Assembly (NCBI GenBank): GCA_963799985.1
Contig: CAWCZC010000005.1
Span: 448,977-512,976, forward strand
DNA: 64,000 nucleotides
Direction: 5' to 3'
DNA from: an uncultured Alphaproteobacteria bacterium
Lineage (GTDB): Bacteria; Pseudomonadota; Alphaproteobacteria; Sphingomonadales; Sphingomonadaceae
Shown here piece after piece: positions 20,525-27,617 of the stretch (its first letter is position 1; every line of letters starts with the position of its first letter). Position numbers and translations under genes: made by a program. Below the pieces are notes generated by a model. It saw nothing but the letters and a program-made list of their open reading frames with translations. It was not told the origin of the DNA and did no database searches.

Positions 20525-21586
20525 GTGGAGGGAGGCCGCAGCGCGTATCGCGTGCCGCCGCCGGAGCAGCGTGCGCTCGTCGCTTGGCCCGCGGATTTCG
20601 GCAGCCGCTTCACCGTCTTCGTCGATACCGAGGAGGAGTTCGAGTGGCGCGCGCCGTTCAGCCGCGACGCGCATTCGACCCGCGCGATCGCCGCTCTGCC
20701 GACGGCACACCGCCGCTTCGCCGATCGGGAAGTGCCGCTGACCTATCTGGTCGATTATCCGGTCGCGACCGCGCTGGAAGCGGTGGAGGTGCTGCGTGGT
20801 CTGATCGCGGACGGGAGATCGGCGATCGGCGCGCAGCTTCATCCCTGGGTCAATCCACCGTTCGATGAGGAATTGAACGGATACAACAGCTTCTGCGGGA
20901 ATCTGCCGAAATCGTTGGAGGCGGCCAAGCTGGCCACGCTGACCGAGATGATCGCTGGGAGCTTCGGGCAGCGGCCGCTCGCGTTCCGGGCCGGACGCTA
21001 CGGGATCGGGCCGGAGACGCTCGGGCTGCTGAGGGCGCAGGGATACCGTGTCGATACCTCGATCCGGGCATTCTATGACTATGGCGCGGAGGGCGGCCCC
21101 GATTTCCGTGGTGTGGGCGACGCCGCGTTCCGCACGGGCCCCGACGGCGCGATCCTCGAGCTGCCGTTCTCGACCGTGTTCACCGGCCGGATGCGCGGGC
21201 GCGGGGAACCGCTCTACCGCGCGCTCGGGCGGATCCCGCGCGCGCGGGGCGTGGCGGCGCGGCTCGGGCTGCTTTCGCGGGTGTCGCTCACGCCCGAGGA
21301 CATGCCGCTCGGCGATGCGATCGAGGCGATCCGAGTCGCAGCGGGCGAGGGACAGCGGCTGCTCAATCTCGCCTTCCACTCGCCGTCGCTCGAGCCGGGG
21401 CACACACCCTACGTCCGCGACGCGGCCGATCTGGCGGCGTTCTGGCGCTGGTGGGATGCGGTGCTCGACCTGCTCGACCGGTCCGGCATCCGCCCCGCCG
21501 CGCTGGGCGCGGTGATCGCCGCGGCCGACGCCGCTTGCGGGGCAGGCGCGGCTTCCGCTACTGCGACGGCCGCTGGGGGCCTGTAG
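20525..21586 (+). CDS. WalW-like polysaccharide deacetylase family protein
   Basis: VDTEEEFEW, IGAQLHPWVNPP, FRAGRYG, FHSPSLEPGHTPY. The stop codon lies inside the tRNA 5' end. Confidence 0.85.
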   Translation: MEGGRSAYRVPPPEQRALVAWPADFGSRFTVFVDTEEEFEWRAPFSRDAHSTRAIAALPTAHRRFADREVPLTYLVDYPVATALEAVEVLRGLIADGRSAIGAQLHPWVNPPFDEELNGYNSFCGNLPKSLEAAKLATLTEMIAGSFGQRPLAFRAGRYGIGPETLGLLRAQGYRVDTSIRAFYDYGAEGGPDFRGVGDAAFRTGPDGAILELPFSTVFTGRMRGRGEPLYRALGRIPRARGVAARLGLLSRVSLTPEDMPLGDAIEAIRVAAGEGQRLLNLAFHSPSLEPGHTPYVRDAADLAAFWRWWDAVLDLLDRSGIRPAALGAVIAAADAACGAGAASATATAAGGL

Positions 21587-21653
21587 CTCAACTGGTTAGA
21601 GCTGGCCGCTCATAACGGCTAGGTTGCGGGTTCAAGTCCTGCCGGGCCCACCA
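21577..21653 (+). tRNA. tRNA-Ile2 (CAT anticodon, lysidine type); elongator Met less likely
   Basis: GGGCCTG/CGGGCCC acceptor stem, GCCG-CTCATAA-CGGC anticodon arm, GGTTCAAGTCC T loop, ACCA end. Confidence 0.9.
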
Positions 21654-22275
21654 GCCGCCCCTCCGGGGCGGCTGAGCCCCCCAAAAGCGTGAAAGGTAAA
21701 GAGGTTACGGCGGTTCTAAAGCCACCATTTCGCGCATATTGAAGGCGGTCGGCAAAGGCCAATTTCATGACCAATCGGCGCAGATCAAAACGTCCAGAAA
21801 GCCAGAGTTTCTGCGGGTTTGCGAGGAAGTCGAGGGCGGTTCTAAAGCCGGTCGTGAAGTCGCCGCGTGGCTTAACAGTATTCTCCATGCGCTCACGTAA
21901 CGCGACCTTGCGGCGCTCAAGCTCGCCGATGCGTTCCTCGTAGGCAGCAATCACCACAGGCAGTTTCGCTTCCACAATGCGATCTACAAGCTGCGCGACA
22001 TCGCGGTCGATCCCGGCAAGCTCTGCCCTGATCGTGGCGGCTTCCTCTTTCGCCCGCGCAGCGCAGCGATCCCATGCCCTGCGGAACGAGTCCCGCGCGT
22101 ACGCAAAGAGCGAGTGGCTTGGGCGCAGCGTGTCGAGTAGTTCGGCGAACTCCCGCTCCATCTAATCGCGGCGGATCGACTTGCCGTACTCGCCGCAGTC
22201 TTTGGTCACGCAAAGATAGTACGGGTAGCTCCGGGTGCGACCCTTGGACCAGCAGCCATAGAGCGCCTTGCCGCA
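21619..22275 (-). pseudogene. Large serine recombinase, C-terminal half only (zinc ribbon plus coiled coil); in-frame TAG at 22162-22164
   Basis: CGKALYGCWSKGRTRSYPYYLCVTKDC...SIRRD*MEREF...coiled coil...GFRTA. Catalytic domain absent; reads into the tRNA antisense. Confidence 0.85.
21648..21655 (+). repeat. Left att core CCACCAGC
   Basis: Overlaps the tRNA ACCA end; repeated at 27487-27494; 16/20 identity over the 20 nt ending at each copy. Confidence 0.75.
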
Positions 22276-22349
22276 TGATGTATCCTCCCCGGTAGCTCGA
22301 AACCTTTGCCAAAAAGCTGGGCGCGAGACGAAGGCCGATTGTTCCAGTA

Positions 22350-24365
22350 TCAAGACCTCTTTTCCCTATCGTATTCCCCAATCGCGTCTATCGCAAACCG
22401 CAGTTTCTTATGCAGAAGTAGCTGCTCGAAGTGAATCCGGTGGTGAAAGCGCCCTCCGACCGGCCTCGAACCGGTAGAATGCAAAATTTGATCCTCCGGC
22501 TGCTCGGCCGACAAATCCACGTAAATCCCGCCAGAAAAGGACTCGCCCTTAAGCCCGTAAATATACTCGACATCTCGGTTCTCCTTGTCGAAGAGCAGAC
22601 TCGGTACCTGCTGCTCCCACTCCTCCTTAGGCACCTCGGCAAGCTCTGGATGTTCGTCTTTTAGCAGCGATCTGTATGACTCTTCCCTGTCTAGCTCATC
22701 TTCCACCGGGTTGAGATAAAAGAGAGGAATGCGCAGGGCGTCGTGCATCTTGCAGAACGACTTTCCGTCTTCGGAGCACAATATCTCTTTGCTCCACAGC
22801 AGTACCCTCGCGATCTCAATTGACGTCTCATCCCCGGCATCTCGTACTTCTACGTGAGTACCATCTCCAAGACGTGAATTAGACCTAAAATAGGTGTGCG
22901 TGGTACGCTTTATGTTCGCTAGCGCAATCTTTATCGCTTCGTCGACAAGCGGTGTCACTCGCAGGGTCCAACGGTTAGTGTCGGCATCCAACGCCTTCGC
23001 AACATAGCGGGGTATCTGCAAACAAAAATAGTAAAACACCAGGGGGTCGAGCCATGCATCGAAAGCCTGCACGTCAACGGCGTAGATCCTATTGGCCTTC
23101 GACACCCAATCGCCCAGATCGTTCACGCGATCAGCGTGCAGGGTAGGAGGAAGCTCAAAGTTCTTGAAGAAGCTCGCGAGTTTCTCGTGAGCCTTCTGTG
23201 CGTTGTGGCGCCTCGAATTCTCCGCCCTCGAAGAGCGGGCCTCATGGATGGCGAGGTGCCGGTTCATTGCCTGCTGGTTCCGCTCGACAAAGAATGTACC
23301 GAGCGGACCCGCGGACTTAATCTTTCCTTTCTCGCTCTCGAACTTTGTTGTGCGGCAAAGCCACCCGTCGGTCTCGCCCGACGCTGCCGACAGGAGCATC
23401 GGCTCAAACTCAAGGGAGGTAAAACAATCCTGTGTGTCGCCGTAGCTTCCGAATGTTCCACCAATCAATGAAAAAATGCCCCATCCAAAGTTCTCGTTAT
23501 CAACCGGATATTGCAAGACCATATCGTGACTATGGACATGACCTGACAGAACGACGTGAACCCGCTGATTCGAAAGCTCCGCGCGCAACAAACCGGCGTT
23601 AATGAGCATCGGAAATTGATCGACATCCTGCGTGGCCGCCGAGTGAATCGGATGATGGACGACGCAGATCTTCAGCGCATGGCGTGGAATAACGGGGGCA
23701 TCGGCCAGCCCTCTTTTGAGTTCCTCCGGATTGACAAAGCCAGGATCTAATCTTGCGATCGCCTTAAGTGTGCTTGCAGCGTCGGAGCGGCTGTCCGGCT
23801 GCAACAGCTTCCGCACTTCCTCGATAGCAGGTTCATTGACATTGCCAGCTATGCCGCACGAGTCGACGCAGTAAAAAGCAACTGGCCCGGTGCGATCGGT
23901 ATGCAAATTGTGGACGGTGACACCAGTATATTTATTGCCCTCTAGCTTTTGGTGGGGCGTGATATATTCCCCGAAAAGACTGTTAAACTGTTCTCTAGCG
24001 AACATTCTTCCAGTATCATCGACGGCGTCGTATGAGTAGTCGTGATTTCCCGGTACAATGACGATACGCTCACGTGCGCGCGCGTTGGTGTCGCCATCCC
24101 AGATAGATCTCAAAGCGTCCCTTATTCCTTCGATAAATCTTTGAGCCTGCATCAACTCTTGAAACGAACCAAAACTGGTTAAGTCGCCACTTATTACAAC
24201 GAAATCGGGAGCTGTTGTCTTATTTAACGCTGACAGATGCGCTAGATACTGATCGTAGACGGAGAGCGGCGCGGGTATTCCGCGCGACAAGCCAGAGTTG
24301 ATGTGCCCTGCTGCCTTGCTCAAAGGGCCGAAGTGAATATCGGAAAGATGGTGAATGCGGATCAT
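22350..24365 (-). CDS. Calcineurin-like metallophosphoesterase with ~300-aa unknown C-terminal domain
   Basis: All five metal motifs present: SDIHFG, SGDLT, PGNHD, HH, GHVH. Confidence 0.9.
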   Translation of the reverse strand: MIRIHHLSDIHFGPLSKAAGHINSGLSRGIPAPLSVYDQYLAHLSALNKTTAPDFVVISGDLTSFGSFQELMQAQRFIEGIRDALRSIWDGDTNARARERIVIVPGNHDYSYDAVDDTGRMFAREQFNSLFGEYITPHQKLEGNKYTGVTVHNLHTDRTGPVAFYCVDSCGIAGNVNEPAIEEVRKLLQPDSRSDAASTLKAIARLDPGFVNPEELKRGLADAPVIPRHALKICVVHHPIHSAATQDVDQFPMLINAGLLRAELSNQRVHVVLSGHVHSHDMVLQYPVDNENFGWGIFSLIGGTFGSYGDTQDCFTSLEFEPMLLSAASGETDGWLCRTTKFESEKGKIKSAGPLGTFFVERNQQAMNRHLAIHEARSSRAENSRRHNAQKAHEKLASFFKNFELPPTLHADRVNDLGDWVSKANRIYAVDVQAFDAWLDPLVFYYFCLQIPRYVAKALDADTNRWTLRVTPLVDEAIKIALANIKRTTHTYFRSNSRLGDGTHVEVRDAGDETSIEIARVLLWSKEILCSEDGKSFCKMHDALRIPLFYLNPVEDELDREESYRSLLKDEHPELAEVPKEEWEQQVPSLLFDKENRDVEYIYGLKGESFSGGIYVDLSAEQPEDQILHSTGSRPVGGRFHHRIHFEQLLLHKKLRFAIDAIGEYDREKRS

Positions 24366-24374
24366 CCTGGGACC

Positions 24375-25583
24375 TTACACCGAGATGTCATGCAGGACGT
24401 TGTTCCGCGAAATAAGCTCCCGGGGACGGGTTGCGCCAAGAAAGCGCATACTCATGCTGGCGCAATAGGCACCGGCGTTGCTGAAGGCCAGCCGGTCCCC
24501 CGGCTGTAGATCAGGCAGCATACAGCCGAGGTGAAGCAGATCACCCGAGTAGGTCGTGCTTCCAGCGATCATGTATTTCCTGGCCACCGCGTCGCCCTCG
24601 CGGCCGACTACCGATACGGGGTGCTGTTCGGACGCCTTTTCGTAGAAGATAGGTCGGGGGAATGAGCAGGCTTCCCCGTCGCAGATCGCTATGTTGCCGT
24701 GGTCCGTCTCCACGATGTCTAGCACCGTCGTAAGGAACACTCCGGCGCGGGCAACCACGGCGCGGCCGATCTCGAAAATCACTCGCGGCCTGTCTCCGCC
24801 ACTTTCAACTGAGCGAGCAACACCCTCCAGCACCCTCTGCCAGTCCTGCCAGAACGGTTGGTCGAGCGGCACCTGGAACGTTGACGGCAGGCCACCTCCG
24901 AAATCAAGGATCGAGATTCCGGGTAGCCGATCTATGATTTCGAGAATCGACTGATAGGCTGATTGAAGCGGGCGCGCGGTTTCAATGTCGGTGCCCGGAT
25001 ATATATGCAGGCCGACCGGTTTCACTCCCTCCCGCCCGGACAAGTTCCAAGCCTGAGCCACTTGCTCGCGAGGCAAACCAATGCGCAGCCCCGCCGCATT
25101 GACGTGGCGCGTTGCATGCGACCGTGTCGACCCGTCTTGCCGTTGCGTTTGGACCCTCAGCCCGATCTGGTTATCGGGAAGTTGTTCGGCGAGATAGAGA
25201 AATTGGCGGATCGAGTTAGCGAACACGATCGTACCGGAAACCCGCCGGACCAGCTCAACTGCCTCAGGAGAAACCGCCGAGGGAGCGAAGACTACTTTCT
25301 GATCGCCAGCCTCCAAATCGTAGATCCTCGCCAAGTGATAATGTGACCCGGCGAAGAATCCAAAACCCTCCTCTTGCACGATCCGCAGGATCTCAGGATT
25401 GTCGTTGGCCATCAGCGCGAAGAACGCCTCAAAGCTCCTAGGCATTAGCCGAGTGATAGCGGCGCTGTCGCCGCGGATCGCCTCCTCGGAGTACAGGTAG
25501 CAGGGTGTCGTGACCTGCTTTACCAAATCGGCCAGTTCGTCGGCCTCGAATGGGCCGGTTCTCTGGAATGTTCCGGGGGCCAT
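24375..25583 (-). CDS. Diaminopimelate/ornithine decarboxylase-fold (PLP fold III) protein with non-canonical active site
   Basis: TPCYLY, FALMAN (usually YAxKAN), LDFGGG, EIGR, GSTTYSGD, AGAY. Confidence 0.88.
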   Translation of the reverse strand: MAPGTFQRTGPFEADELADLVKQVTTPCYLYSEEAIRGDSAAITRLMPRSFEAFFALMANDNPEILRIVQEEGFGFFAGSHYHLARIYDLEAGDQKVVFAPSAVSPEAVELVRRVSGTIVFANSIRQFLYLAEQLPDNQIGLRVQTQRQDGSTRSHATRHVNAAGLRIGLPREQVAQAWNLSGREGVKPVGLHIYPGTDIETARPLQSAYQSILEIIDRLPGISILDFGGGLPSTFQVPLDQPFWQDWQRVLEGVARSVESGGDRPRVIFEIGRAVVARAGVFLTTVLDIVETDHGNIAICDGEACSFPRPIFYEKASEQHPVSVVGREGDAVARKYMIAGSTTYSGDLLHLGCMLPDLQPGDRLAFSNAGAYCASMSMRFLGATRPRELISRNNVLHDISV

Positions 25584-26236
25584 CACTCCGACACTAGTCT
25601 CGTGATGATAAGGTGCCGGCCCTTGCCGCCACTCTTTCGACTGATCGTAATGTCACCGACCTCGGCGATCTCGCGCAGGTGCACGCCCCCGCAGGGAACG
25701 ACGACGCCCTTACAACGCCAGTACCGGAGTTTACGGTCCTGGTCGTCCTCGGAGGTCTCGATCGCCCCACCTTCGTCTATGAATGCCTGGCACTTCTTGG
25801 TTATGCGGGTGATCAGTTCCGGAGGCATCGCCCCTTCGTACTCGTAGGTGCACTTGTCGCCGGATTCCGTCAGGAAGTTCCCTACCCGTGCCAGTTCTCC
25901 TAGTTCAGAATACAGGTAGTGCTCCATCAGGTGCGACGCGGAGTGAAGGCGCATAATCCGGAACCTGCGATTCCAGTTCAGATTTACCATGACCCGCTGG
26001 CCTGGCACGATCGACGCGGGATCGCTGACCAGGTGGGCGATCCTCGCTTCTCCATCCATTAGCGTATCGCTAACCTGCGCATCGCCGATGAAGCCGGTGT
26101 CTCCAGGGCACCCACCGCCGCGAGGCGAGAATGCGCTCCGGTCCAGATAAACCCGGTTATCGTGCACGGAAAGCACCGTCGCCTCGAACTGCGACAGGTA
26201 CGGGTCGTCGTAATAAAGAATCCGGGTTTTCGTCAC
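25583..26236 (-). CDS. AlaX-type alanyl-tRNA editing (deacylase) protein
   Basis: YYDDPYL, GGGCPGDTG, MRLHSASH (HxxxH), PCGGVH (CxxxH). GTG start inferred; TGATG overlap with the next gene. Confidence 0.9.
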   Translation of the reverse strand: MTKTRILYYDDPYLSQFEATVLSVHDNRVYLDRSAFSPRGGGCPGDTGFIGDAQVSDTLMDGEARIAHLVSDPASIVPGQRVMVNLNWNRRFRIMRLHSASHLMEHYLYSELGELARVGNFLTESGDKCTYEYEGAMPPELITRITKKCQAFIDEGGAIETSEDDQDRKLRYWRCKGVVVPCGGVHLREIAEVGDITISRKSGGKGRHLIITRLVSE

Positions 26237-26298
26237 TAAGGCTACCTGCTCACCAACGGGCCAATGGACGCGGCCGGCCAGCGCTCGCTGACAGTCAG

Positions 26299-26326
26299 AT
26301 TTTATCCTAATCCGATCAAGACGCAA
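26299..26326 (-). promoter_or_regulatory. Putative sigma70 promoter for the cargo operon
   Basis: TTGCGT-N16-TAAAAT about 60 bp upstream of the inferred alaX start. Confidence 0.45.
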
Positions 26327-26357
26327 TGCCGACCCGAGGATAGAAATGGCCTGTGAG

Positions 26358-26617
26358 GTGGTTGGTGGATAGGGCGATCGGCAAGACCCGGCATATTGGC
26401 GCGACCCCGTACACCTCGCGATGCACGTCGATGATTAACACCATCACCTCGCTAGTCAGACGCTCGAAGGTGGAGCTCCGCCATCGCAAAATATGCGGAC
26501 GCCTTGCGCAGGTTCTCATTGGCCCGGCGCAGCTCCCGGTTTTCACGCTCCGGCGCCTTCATCCGCTCAGCGACATCGCTCGGCAGACCGGCACTCGCAC
26601 CGTTGCCGACTTCGTCG
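26358..26617 (-). mobile_element. IS3-family transposase remnant (orfA end / orfB start)
   Basis: ERMKAPERENRELRRANENLRKASAYFAMAEL followed by IDVHREVYGVAPICRVLPIALST. Confidence 0.88.
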
Positions 26618-26892
26618 ACCAGAGGGATAGGCGCAGCGCGGCGCTGAAGGCCAGTCCGACATTCCGCGACTTGCGCGTCATCCCAGTCGACAATCCGCCA
26701 TCTTTATGAGTCGACGATCGCTGAACAAACGACCGTTTTCGGGATCTGTTTTCGGCTGCACGAATGACCGATATTGGGGCGCAAGCGGTGAAAACCGCTC
26801 ACCTCATTAAGTCACTGAAAAGAAATAATACTAGATGCAACAAAATTGCCGATAGTGTTGCATCGCCGTAGATTCAGACCGTCGCTGACGGG

Positions 26893-27138
26893 ATGGAACT
26901 CATGCGGAAACGGCTTGCTATCGCGGCAATCGCGCTTGCCGCCTCGTCGCTCGCGACGCCCTCGGCTATGGGCCAGCAAACGCGCCCGGCCCCCGTTTCG
27001 GAAATAAGCGTTCCGCTTCGCGACGCTCGAACGGCGGGCGCTAGATCGGTGCGCTTCGCGGCGGCGCAGTTCACGAAGACGGAGCCGGTGGTGGTTCTGC
27101 TCCTCGGTGGGCGGCGCGGGCAAAGAGGCGGGATTTGA
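26893..27138 (+). pseudogene. Small exported protein, probably 3'-truncated
   Basis: Signal peptide MRKRLAIAAIALAASSLATPSAMG; runs head-on into the mobC remnant. Confidence 0.5.
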
Positions 27139-27246
27139 CGTAGGCTCCAAGCGCCAGTCCGCCCGCGTCGCGCTCAAGCTGGGCGCGCTCTGCCGCCGAC
27201 AGCCGGATGCAGAACGGCGAGGGCCCTTGGGTTTGGACCCTGACAT
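27110..27246 (-). pseudogene. MobC-like ribbon-helix-helix protein, N-terminal fragment
   Basis: PSPFCIRLSAAERAQLERDAGGLALGAYVKSRLF; frameshifted from the ATG at 27246 and truncated. Confidence 0.7.
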
Positions 27247-27343
27247 GGGATCGGAATTCGACAAACGACAACACGCCGCATCCGGCAGGGTGCGAGGTAT
27301 GCGCCTCGGTTAGAGGTGAGACGGGGGTTAGGAAAAGCGCCGG

Positions 27344-27493
27344 TCAGGGGCCGGATGGTTCCGGCGGCTCTGGATCAGGGCCGAGAAATTCGGCAGGAAC
27401 GTCCCGCAGGTTGGATTCCCAATCGGCAAGCGTTCGAAATAGCTCGTCCGAGTCGAACGGCGGGTTCGAGGATTGTCCCTCGGGGACCACCAG
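27344..27493 (-). other. Displaced C-terminal tail of the serine recombinase (joined only in the excised circle)
   Basis: [49 protein letters not shown] in the same codon phase across the att core as the recombinase's LVGPAGLEPAT*. Confidence 0.7.
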
Positions 27494-27494
27494 C
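27487..27494 (+). repeat. Right att core CCACCAGC
   Basis: GTCCCTCGGGGA-CCACCAGC versus the tRNA end GTCCTGCCGGGC-CCACCAGC. Confidence 0.75.
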
Positions 27495-27540
27495 GGCGCC
27501 CTTGTGCCTCTTGCCGAGAAGCCCTAGGCGGCATCCGCGT

Positions 27541-27617
<77 letters not shown>

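Follow-up and report, generated by a model that had tools for sequence, protein, structure and literature searches.

A rare three-gene module joining AlaX-like and decarboxylase-like proteins to a phosphoesterase: a possible defence or conflict system linked to tRNA-Lys

What could an editing-type hydrolase, a decarboxylase homologue without its catalytic lysine and a phosphoesterase do together in one small operon? The question is raised by three genes covering 3.9 kb in the DNA of an uncultured Sphingomonadaceae bacterium (GenBank assembly GCA_963799985.1, contig CAWCZC010000005.1, positions 448,977 to 512,976); this stretch of 64,000 nucleotides (nt) is called the window, and all positions refer to it. 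The trio lies on the minus strand and comprises gene A (25583..26236), encoding an AlaX-M-like aminoacyl-tRNA editing-type hydrolase of 217 amino acids (aa) from GTG 26236, gene B (24375..25586), encoding a fold-type III diaminopimelate (DAP)-decarboxylase-like protein of 403 aa, and gene C (22350..24365), encoding a 671-aa protein made of a metallophosphoesterase, a linker and a phospholipase D (PLD)-like domain. An earlier note, made from the sequence alone, had proposed a check against PADLOC, and the trio is indeed absent from it: in PADLOC-DB v2 neither the AlaX-like nor the decarboxylase-like protein has a match, and the phosphoesterase is weakly similar to PDC-S60 and to a generic effector model. 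NCBIfam holds no matching system, and no description of an AlaX-like, decarboxylase-like and phosphoesterase combination was found in the literature. As judged from its sequence relatives, the trio appears to be a member of a rare, undescribed modular gene system. The reading that we favour, with a probability of about 40%, is that of a new defence or conflict system that would act on Lys-tRNA or on a lysine-derived ligand.

The rarity of the family is apparent from gene C: in 5.8 billion protein clusters it has only 8 full-length relatives, and HMMER likewise gave 8 hits with E<1e-30 when 1.84 billion representatives were searched. Two full-length relatives were found in the genome-contig scan, in which the other 37 loci match the phosphoesterase domain only; among these 37, a single locus (L017) carries the PLD-like tail. 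A second metagenome scan with a smaller alignment of the tail domain yielded no relative, and the viral-contig scans yielded two remote phosphoesterase matches only, the system being not found in that phage collection. The same trio is carried by loci L001, L002/L003 and L009 at 62-86% identity. The four alphaproteobacterial loci have only the trio genes in common; homology of the window to L002 or L009 covers exactly 22356-26271, that is the trio only, in otherwise different neighbourhoods. Moreover, the architecture recurs at 26-43% identity in Planctomycetales ZRK34 and in metagenome contigs. The ZRK34 locus (L004, 31% identity) has a decarboxylase-like gene, a phosphoesterase and a 723-aa fusion protein, and the metagenome loci L006/L007 and L049 (about 26% identity) combine a decarboxylase-like gene and a phosphoesterase with a gene that contains AlaX. 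Conservation beyond close strains, on which the earlier note had made its proposal depend, is thus found in three deep lineages at 26-43% identity. With dN/dS values of 0.17-0.32 for all three genes, the trio is, on these comparisons, a conserved, mobile unit under purifying selection.

The phosphoesterase domain of gene C (residues 1 to ~330; 23376..24365, minus strand) matches PF00149 (Metallophos) with 45.8 bits, the gathering score being 21.5. All calcineurin-like metal-binding motifs (DxH, GD, GNH(D/E), H and GHxH) are present; residues D9, H11, D61, N107, H237, H238, H276 and H278 are invariant in our alignments A2 and A6, and H108 shares this invariance in A2 and reaches at least 90% conservation in A6. 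The metallophosphoesterase first proposed for this gene is therefore borne out by the Pfam match and the invariant metal ligands, and from its residues the domain is active-looking. Its AlphaFold2 (AF2) model has a mean predicted local distance difference test (pLDDT) score of 80.9. The best matches of this model in the Protein Data Bank (PDB) are YydB, GpdQ, Rv0805 and purple acid phosphatases, with Mre11 ranking lower, and YydB is the best Foldseek match (1.8e-11). Remote matches connect the domain to the anti-phage families DS9_1 (2.9e-16), DS8 (2.1e-09) and PDC-S60 (1.9e-05). Searched against PHROGs, the system gave only a weak generic phosphoesterase match.

The C-terminal part of gene C, about 270 residues, matches no Pfam family. 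The domain itself (residues ~405-671; 22353..23153, minus strand) gave an AF2 model with a pLDDT of 82.5 and a predicted TM-score (pTM) of 0.84. Because Foldseek found nothing for it in the PDB at E<=0.001, its fold assignment rests on VIA-align, in which the top 22 rows all have the PLD-superfamily fold with Z scores from 9.3 to 5.5 (SauUSI 9.3, TrmBL2 7.7, Zucchini 7.7, NucT 7.6). An atlas structure search returned PLDc_2/TrmB-type and DUF5753 regulator domains with TM values of 0.39-0.48. The HxK(x)4D (HKD) motif is absent from the tail: H541 is nearly invariant but is followed neither by Lys at +2 nor by Asp at +7 (MHDALRIPLFYL). Furthermore, residues ~416-570 match the C-terminal half of CAP12/Pycsar-type TIR proteins of about 430 aa (PF10137). 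Tail homologues fused to TIR are P0194, P0202, P0210 and P0221, and D431, Y446, Q450, R520, W524, P547 and F549 are invariant in both the phosphoesterase and the TIR fusion types. The models and matches suggest that the tail is a new PLD-like, regulatory-looking domain swapped between phosphoesterase and TIR effectors. The earlier idea of a calcineurin-like effector in nucleotide signalling gains indirect support from this shared tail. No nucleotide cyclase or other known signal generator accompanies the genes: the window and loci L004, L006, L049, L051, L048, L050 and L111 all lack a dedicated enzyme of this kind (CD-NTase, cyclase or ThsB TIR).

One TIR-fused relative of the tail has a neighbourhood of its own. 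At L008:196-8718 a PF10137 TIR protein with the PLD-like tail stands in a row with a thiamine pyrophosphate (TPP) enzyme, a 698-aa protein, SIR2_2, nSTAND1 and a WD40 protein. The TPP enzyme is indolepyruvate-decarboxylase-like (a keto-acid decarboxylase), and a language-model search placed the 698-aa neighbour with flavin amine oxidases (score 0.99), as a lead only. This locus may be a sister system of the trio.

Gene B is a decarboxylase homologue by sequence and by fold. It matches PF02784 (69.3 bits) and PF00278 (49.6 bits), both above the gathering score, and scores 169.8 bits against TIGR01048 lysA, under the cut-off of 297.9. Its best PDB matches are DAP decarboxylases, and BtrK is matched with an E value of 3.7e-17. 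The protein shares with LysA/DAP decarboxylases and BtrK the two-domain fold and the ligands of the pyridoxal 5'-phosphate (PLP) ring and phosphate, with H194, GGG230-232, E272, R275 and Y374 invariant, so by Pfam matches and ligands it has the PLP-binding fold of type III and may bind PLP. In contrast to LysA, the Schiff-base lysine is replaced by Met (FALMANDNP, as compared to FAVKANNNP in 2yxx) and the Cys-Glu of the CE(S/T)xD motif by Thr-Tyr, so that three catalytic residues are lacking, and both replacements are conserved over a separate clade. The initial description of gene B as a lysine-less PLP decarboxylase homologue was correct, given its Orn/DAP/Arg decarboxylase fold and the Lys-to-Met change against 2yxx. 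The source genome has a separate canonical lysA-like gene elsewhere.

The Met at the Schiff-base position is conserved across the clade, in which the motif reads (F/Y)(A/P)xM(A/T)ND(N/H)P. In the tree, Met-type proteins are split from Lys-bearing enzymes with support of 93/84, a separation to which ascertainment contributes in part, the metagenome rows having been chosen by motif; the decarboxylase homologues of the trio loci form one clade (94/90). A DNA-pattern scan for the motif gave about 35 further Met-type genes, most of them in a different conserved cluster, and the viral-contig scan for the motif gave none. Whatever the phenotype of the trio, enzymology faces a clear question in a clade of DAP-decarboxylase homologues that throughout have Met in place of the Schiff-base lysine. 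The other cluster, seen at metagenome loci L005, L072, L105, L071, L081, L090 and others, has five genes in the order Phosphodiest and radical S-adenosylmethionine (radical-SAM)/SPASM fusion, B12 radical-SAM and PNPOx fusion, Met-type decarboxylase, TldD/PmbA, and lastly a 332-aa protein of unknown kind. The cluster has the look of an undescribed pathway for maturing a peptide or a cofactor.

Gene A belongs to the superfamily of AlaX and the AlaRS/ThrRS editing domains by its HxxxH and CxxxH motifs and its fold. It matches the NCBIfam model AlaXM (NF040865) with an E value of 1.8e-38 and aligns over 207 residues to 2e1b (Pyrococcus horikoshii PH0108, an AlaX-M) with an E value of 3.3e-35, and these two matches uphold the AlaX assignment that had been made by eye. 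Fold, length, HxxxH and CxxxH are as in AlaX-M, and the zinc motifs HSASH and CGGVH are intact and aligned to those of 2e1b; 6 of 7 system members retain HSASH and CGG(V/T)H. Gene A differs from AlaX-M in that its score of 132.6 bits is far under the 300-bit equivalog cut-off, and in the Gly-rich motif, which reads GGGCPGD instead of GGGQPHD. Moreover, AlaX-M is tied to AlaRS, whereas in distant members of the system the AlaX-like domain is fused to lysyl-tRNA synthetase (LysRS) of class I or class II, and therefore the cognate tRNA of the AlaX-like component would probably be tRNA-Lys and not tRNA-Ala.

These fusions tie the module to tRNA-Lys. In L004 a class II LysRS (578 bits, cut-off 468) is followed by an AlaX-like domain, in L049 a class I LysRS (266 bits, cut-off 147.55) is followed by an AlaX-like domain, and in L006 the anticodon-binding domain of class I LysRS, without the rest of the enzyme, precedes the AlaX-like domain. 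In L051 a class II LysRS adjoins the phosphoesterase; the C-terminal extension of this LysRS was considered as a further AlaX-like domain and discarded (hhalign probability 1%). ZRK34 also has a separate housekeeping LysRS (538.7 bits, cut-off 535.3). Two unrelated LysRS classes thus share one editing-type domain as fusion partner within a single type of operon, and this is strong evidence that the AlaX-like component works on tRNA-Lys or Lys-tRNA(Lys). The amino-acid/tRNA-centred module that had been envisaged at the outset is in this way supported and narrowed to tRNA-Lys. Independently of any phenotype, two LysRS classes that are each fused to an AlaX-like domain provide a testable case of an editing domain re-aimed at tRNA-Lys.

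The AlaX component is nevertheless not an obligatory part of the system, because it has been deleted in three different ways in close relatives. In L001 about 65 codons of the AlaX gene are missing, HxxxH included; a contig of sequencing run X1 skips 25648-26145, part of the gene, and a contig of run X3 skips 25582-26233, the whole gene. The deletions are independent and all different, and genes B and C are whole in the three relatives. A complex prediction for the proteins of genes B and A gave a score of 0.00, which, being run without controls, is uninformative either way.

Other members of the gene C family replace the partners, and for this reason the phosphoesterase/PLD-like protein can be regarded as the constant element, found with an amine-acting enzyme and often with a tRNA-Lys-directed component. 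A B3_4 editing-type domain takes the place of AlaX in L048, where a ThiO-like FAD oxidase (DAO) and a glyoxalase are present. DAO replaces the decarboxylase-like gene in L048, L050 and L111, and in the latter two it occurs with an ATP-grasp (DdaF-like) or a GSP-synthetase-like ligase. The decarboxylase-like gene is replaced in L051 by a B12 radical-SAM enzyme, with weak best matches to ApyD and PhpK-type models, and in L017 by a PhyH dioxygenase. Loci L050, L111 and L017 have no tRNA-related gene.

The loci often adjoin defence genes. The earlier note had proposed a check for enrichment near such genes; the defence context seen here comes from about seven loci and not from an enrichment statistic. 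TIR genes adjoin the trio in L001 and L002; they were rejected as fixed partners, as they share only the TIR domain, are not orthologous and are absent elsewhere. L002 also has a McrB-like gene and a SWI2/SNF2 helicase nearby, and L051 has SNase and helix-turn-helix (HTH) genes. In ZRK34 a HigB toxin gene and a Cas9-like gene of 975 aa (Cas9_a, HNH_4) are found 3 kb away from the system (L004:890-5669), an integrase and an NB-ARC/S1 protein are on the side opposite the Cas9-like gene, and DUF932 is also among the neighbours of the system. L111 is accompanied by a type I restriction-modification (R-M) system and by an ORC/Cdc6-like gene paired with a calcineurin-wHTH gene. In that R-M island, at L111:11482-15430, an unknown 310-aa protein, an ORC/CDC6-like ATPase and a Metallophos and wHTH (winged HTH)-calcineurin-associated protein stand in a row, and these three genes have no PADLOC match at 1e-5. 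Glyoxalase/bleomycin-resistance-type genes occur near L048 and L009. The neighbours of L017 are a permease, an amidohydrolase and a peptidase.

How could these parts work together? Our favoured reading, a defence or conflict system, has two swappable components. The first would be aimed at the aminoacylated 3' end of tRNA-Lys (AlaX-like, free or fused to LysRS, or B3_4), and the second would be an enzyme directed at an amino-acid amine (the lysine-less DAP-decarboxylase fold, FAD amine oxidase, B12 radical-SAM or PhyH). The AlaX-like and lysine-less PLP-fold proteins would read or convert either a small molecule derived from lysine or the lysyl end of Lys-tRNA(Lys). The PLD-like domain would then sense the resulting state or ligand and switch on the phosphoesterase effector, as the same domain may switch on the TIR effector in sister systems, and growth or phage replication would be arrested as a result. 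In this scheme the sensing roles, the chemistry of the lysine-less protein, the substrate of the phosphoesterase and the anti-phage phenotype are all what we infer. The small size of the module and its natural AlaX-less variants make direct tests easy.

Several observations weigh against a defence or conflict role. The modelled tail was assigned to the PLD fold by Z scores of 7-9, values that the tool itself describes as frequent among models lacking a clear match. The Met-type clade is mostly found in the other, biosynthetic-looking cluster with radical-SAM and TldD/PmbA genes. The loss of AlaX in three close relatives indicates that it is dispensable, or that those copies are decaying. The LysRS copies linked to the system obtain scores like those of true housekeeping enzymes, which fits resistance or biosynthesis at least as well. 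The defence context consists of about seven loci and weak PADLOC similarities, the L017 neighbourhood is metabolic-looking, and no known signal-generating enzyme (cyclase, TIR partner) is constant in the system.

Resistance or detoxification is an unlikely alternative: the cassette would counter a lysine antimetabolite, or an aminoacyl-nucleotide toxin directed at LysRS. Here the additional LysRS would serve as a bypass target, the AlaX-like protein would rid the cell of mischarged tRNA-Lys or hydrolyse an aminoacyl-nucleoside ester, a phospho-linkage of the toxin would be cut by the phosphoesterase, and the lysine-less PLP-fold protein would bind or neutralise the lysine analogue. An extra synthetase beside the housekeeping copy is a known pattern of self-resistance synthetase paralogues, and the system-linked LysRS copies do pass curated cut-offs and exist beside a housekeeping copy; yet the window trio, L001, L002 and L009 have no LysRS. 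AlaX-like and B3_4 editing-type domains hydrolyse, by family, wrongly acylated tRNA, but AlaX has been repeatedly deleted while genes B and C persist. The small-molecule diesterases GpdQ and Rv0805 among the best structural matches of the phosphoesterase, as well as the glyoxalase/bleomycin-resistance-type genes near two loci, would suit a detoxifying role, whereas B12 radical-SAM, DAO with ATP-grasp ligases and PhyH are hard to read as single-compound detoxifiers. A further point against this reading is that TIR effector proteins of defence-type loci carry the tail domain as well.

Rather unlikely is small-molecule biosynthesis, in which the product would be a lysine- or amino-acid-derived phospho-metabolite or an aminoacyl-nucleotide. 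Lys-tRNA(Lys) or the ATP-grasp ligases would give the activated donor, the variable redox enzymes would perform tailoring steps, and the phosphoesterase would be a processing enzyme. The partners (DAO, B12 radical-SAM, PhyH, DdaF-like ATP-grasp, GSP-synthetase-like ligase) are indeed typical tailoring or ligating enzymes. The Met-type clade occurs mainly in the Phosphodiest/radical-SAM-SPASM, B12 radical-SAM/PNPOx and TldD/PmbA cluster, where a phosphoesterase is adjoining too, and a LysRS fused to a Lys-tRNA-using domain recalls LysX, which is a LysRS-MprF fusion. A pathway of three genes would be too short, however, and the module lacks any conserved companion gene for a transporter, a regulator or a precursor. 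Each locus is in a different neighbourhood, mostly mobile or defence-type, and the decarboxylase-like protein is devoid of the three catalytic residues.

A bolder form of the favoured defence reading, which we consider quite unlikely, is an immune pathway with aminoacyl-tRNA as raw material or alarm. Together with the lysine-less PLP-fold protein, a tRNA-Lys-directed editing or synthetase module would capture lysine itself or the lysyl end of Lys-tRNA(Lys), or convert it, to give a ligand; this ligand would be read by the PLD-like sensor and the phosphoesterase or TIR effectors switched on. The substrate's own amine could then form the Schiff base that the lysine-less enzyme cannot. If true, cyclic-nucleotide immunity would have a parallel in a signalling chemistry derived from amino acids.

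Healing or quality control of the 3' end of tRNA-Lys, against toxins that acylate, (pyro)phosphorylate or cut the acceptor end, is improbable. Here aberrant acyl groups would be taken off by the AlaX-like protein and 3' phosphates by the phosphoesterase, and recharging of the tRNA would fall to the fused LysRS. Every recognisable tRNA-directed part would either work at the 3' end or close to it, or bind the anticodon of tRNA-Lys, and the locus is mobile and found in conflict-type contexts. There is precedent by analogy, as Pnkp-type repair enzymes use calcineurin-type phosphoesterases to heal RNA ends, and PrrC and PARIS target tRNA-Lys. But this hypothesis leaves no role for the most constant partners, the lysine-less PLP-fold protein or its DAO, radical-SAM and PhyH replacements. 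Neither a ligase nor a kinase is present, AlaX is dispensable in close relatives, and L050, L111 and L017 are variants without any tRNA-related gene. Finally, unrelated cargo travelling together, or a decaying module without present function, as the different AlaX deletions in L001 and the run X1 and X3 contigs and the extreme rarity of the family might suggest, is very improbable and already disfavoured by an architecture conserved at 26-43% identity across phyla, translationally coupled genes, dN/dS of about 0.2 in all three genes and invariant catalytic and metal-binding motifs.

The setting of the trio in the window is that of an island. It is carried by a low-GC insertion of 5.9 kb (21654..27540) between tRNA-Met (21577-21653) and tRNA-Pro (27541-27617), both located by tRNA gene search; the GC fraction is 0.54-0.60 over 22-27 kb and 0.68-0.72 on both flanks. 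The spacing from tRNA-Met to tRNA-Pro is about 70-940 nt in relatives of the same genus, and none of 20 relatives has the trio. A run X1 contig joins 21652 directly to 27539, which is an empty site. By comparison with its relatives, the region is a horizontally acquired insertion. No direct repeats able to serve as att sites bound it. The flanking open reading frames (ORFs) match no Pfam or NCBIfam family, and a six-frame reading of the island gave no match to Resolvase, Recombinase or Phage_integrase; thus the destroyed mobility genes that had been described around the trio were not recovered, as no mobility gene, whole or broken, is recognisable in the island. Divergent from the operon lies a 118-aa ORF (26353-26709, plus strand), 82% identical to a gene of L001 and without family match. 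Its DNA recurs in multiple copies in the same-genus genomes G012, G004, G006 and G007 at 68-80% identity, and it is probably the gene of a small mobile element. As a fourth component of the system it was rejected, being conserved only with L001 and multi-copy in relatives.

Within the operon, none of the reading frames 25583..26326, 24375..25586 and 22350..24365 is broken. The A/B junction reads GTGATG, in which the gene A stop TGA overlaps the gene B start, and 9 nt separate genes B and C. The frame of gene A extends up to TTG 26326; its start is most likely GTG 26236 rather than this TTG, because the resulting 217 aa agree with homologues (the L002 homologue has 217 aa and is 73% identical). 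The first description of three co-oriented, intact and tightly coupled genes of lower GC, with a TGATG overlap and a 9-nt gap, was accurate on each point, except that its sigma70-like promoter was not found: a sigma70-type consensus scan of the whole island gave 2 sites for 2.5 expected by chance, none of them upstream of the AlaX gene, where a weak TTGCGT-16-TAAAAT and nothing more is seen by eye. A search of sequencing runs returned one metatranscriptome contig of 252 nt identical to 24878-25129. It is a weak hint of transcription of the trio, as carry-over of DNA is possible. The runs holding sequence of the stretch each cover a small share of it only.

With regard to described systems, DS-9 and DS-8 (NCBIfam), PDC-S60 (PADLOC) and Bacillus subtilis YydB have a remote likeness to gene C within the calcineurin-like domain. 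Gene C is far under the cut-offs of DS-9 (NF053862, 59.4 vs 420 bits) and DS-8 (NF053861, 35.7 vs 790 bits), all four align to part of the phosphoesterase domain only, and their systems have no AlaX-like, decarboxylase-like or PLD-like parts. LysX resembles the system in that a second LysRS copy is fused to a domain handling Lys-tRNA(Lys), and the L004 and L051 LysRS proteins match the LysX model over the LysRS part. However, the fused partner has the AlaX-type hydrolase fold in the system and is the MprF transferase in LysX, and the window version, unlike LysX, has no LysRS. A looser analogy can be drawn with PrrC, RloC and PARIS, in which tRNA-Lys would likewise be the focus of a mobile conflict-type module; tRNA-Lys is a target in phage-host conflict via PrrC and PARIS. 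Those are anticodon nucleases without sequence relation to the trio, whereas the recognisable parts of the system would address the aminoacylated 3' end.

There is a parallel in organisation with the cyclic-oligonucleotide-based anti-phage signalling system (CBASS), Pycsar and Thoeris, in which a sensor domain is fused to interchangeable effectors; in the system described here one C-terminal domain is fused either to a phosphoesterase or to a PF10137 TIR domain, in defence-type neighbourhoods. The signal generators of these systems (CD-NTase, pyrimidine cyclase, ThsB-type) are absent from the trio and its relatives, and the shared domain is predicted to be PLD-like, not SAVED, STING, CARF or SLOG. 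Should the trio prove to be a defence system, it would be the first whose working parts include aminoacyl-tRNA editing and synthetase domains together with a PLP-fold protein without the catalytic lysine, and it would establish a new regulatory domain, PLD-like and interchangeable between phosphoesterase and TIR effectors. Unlike those of CBASS, Pycsar and Thoeris, its partner enzymes would act on amino acids or tRNA.

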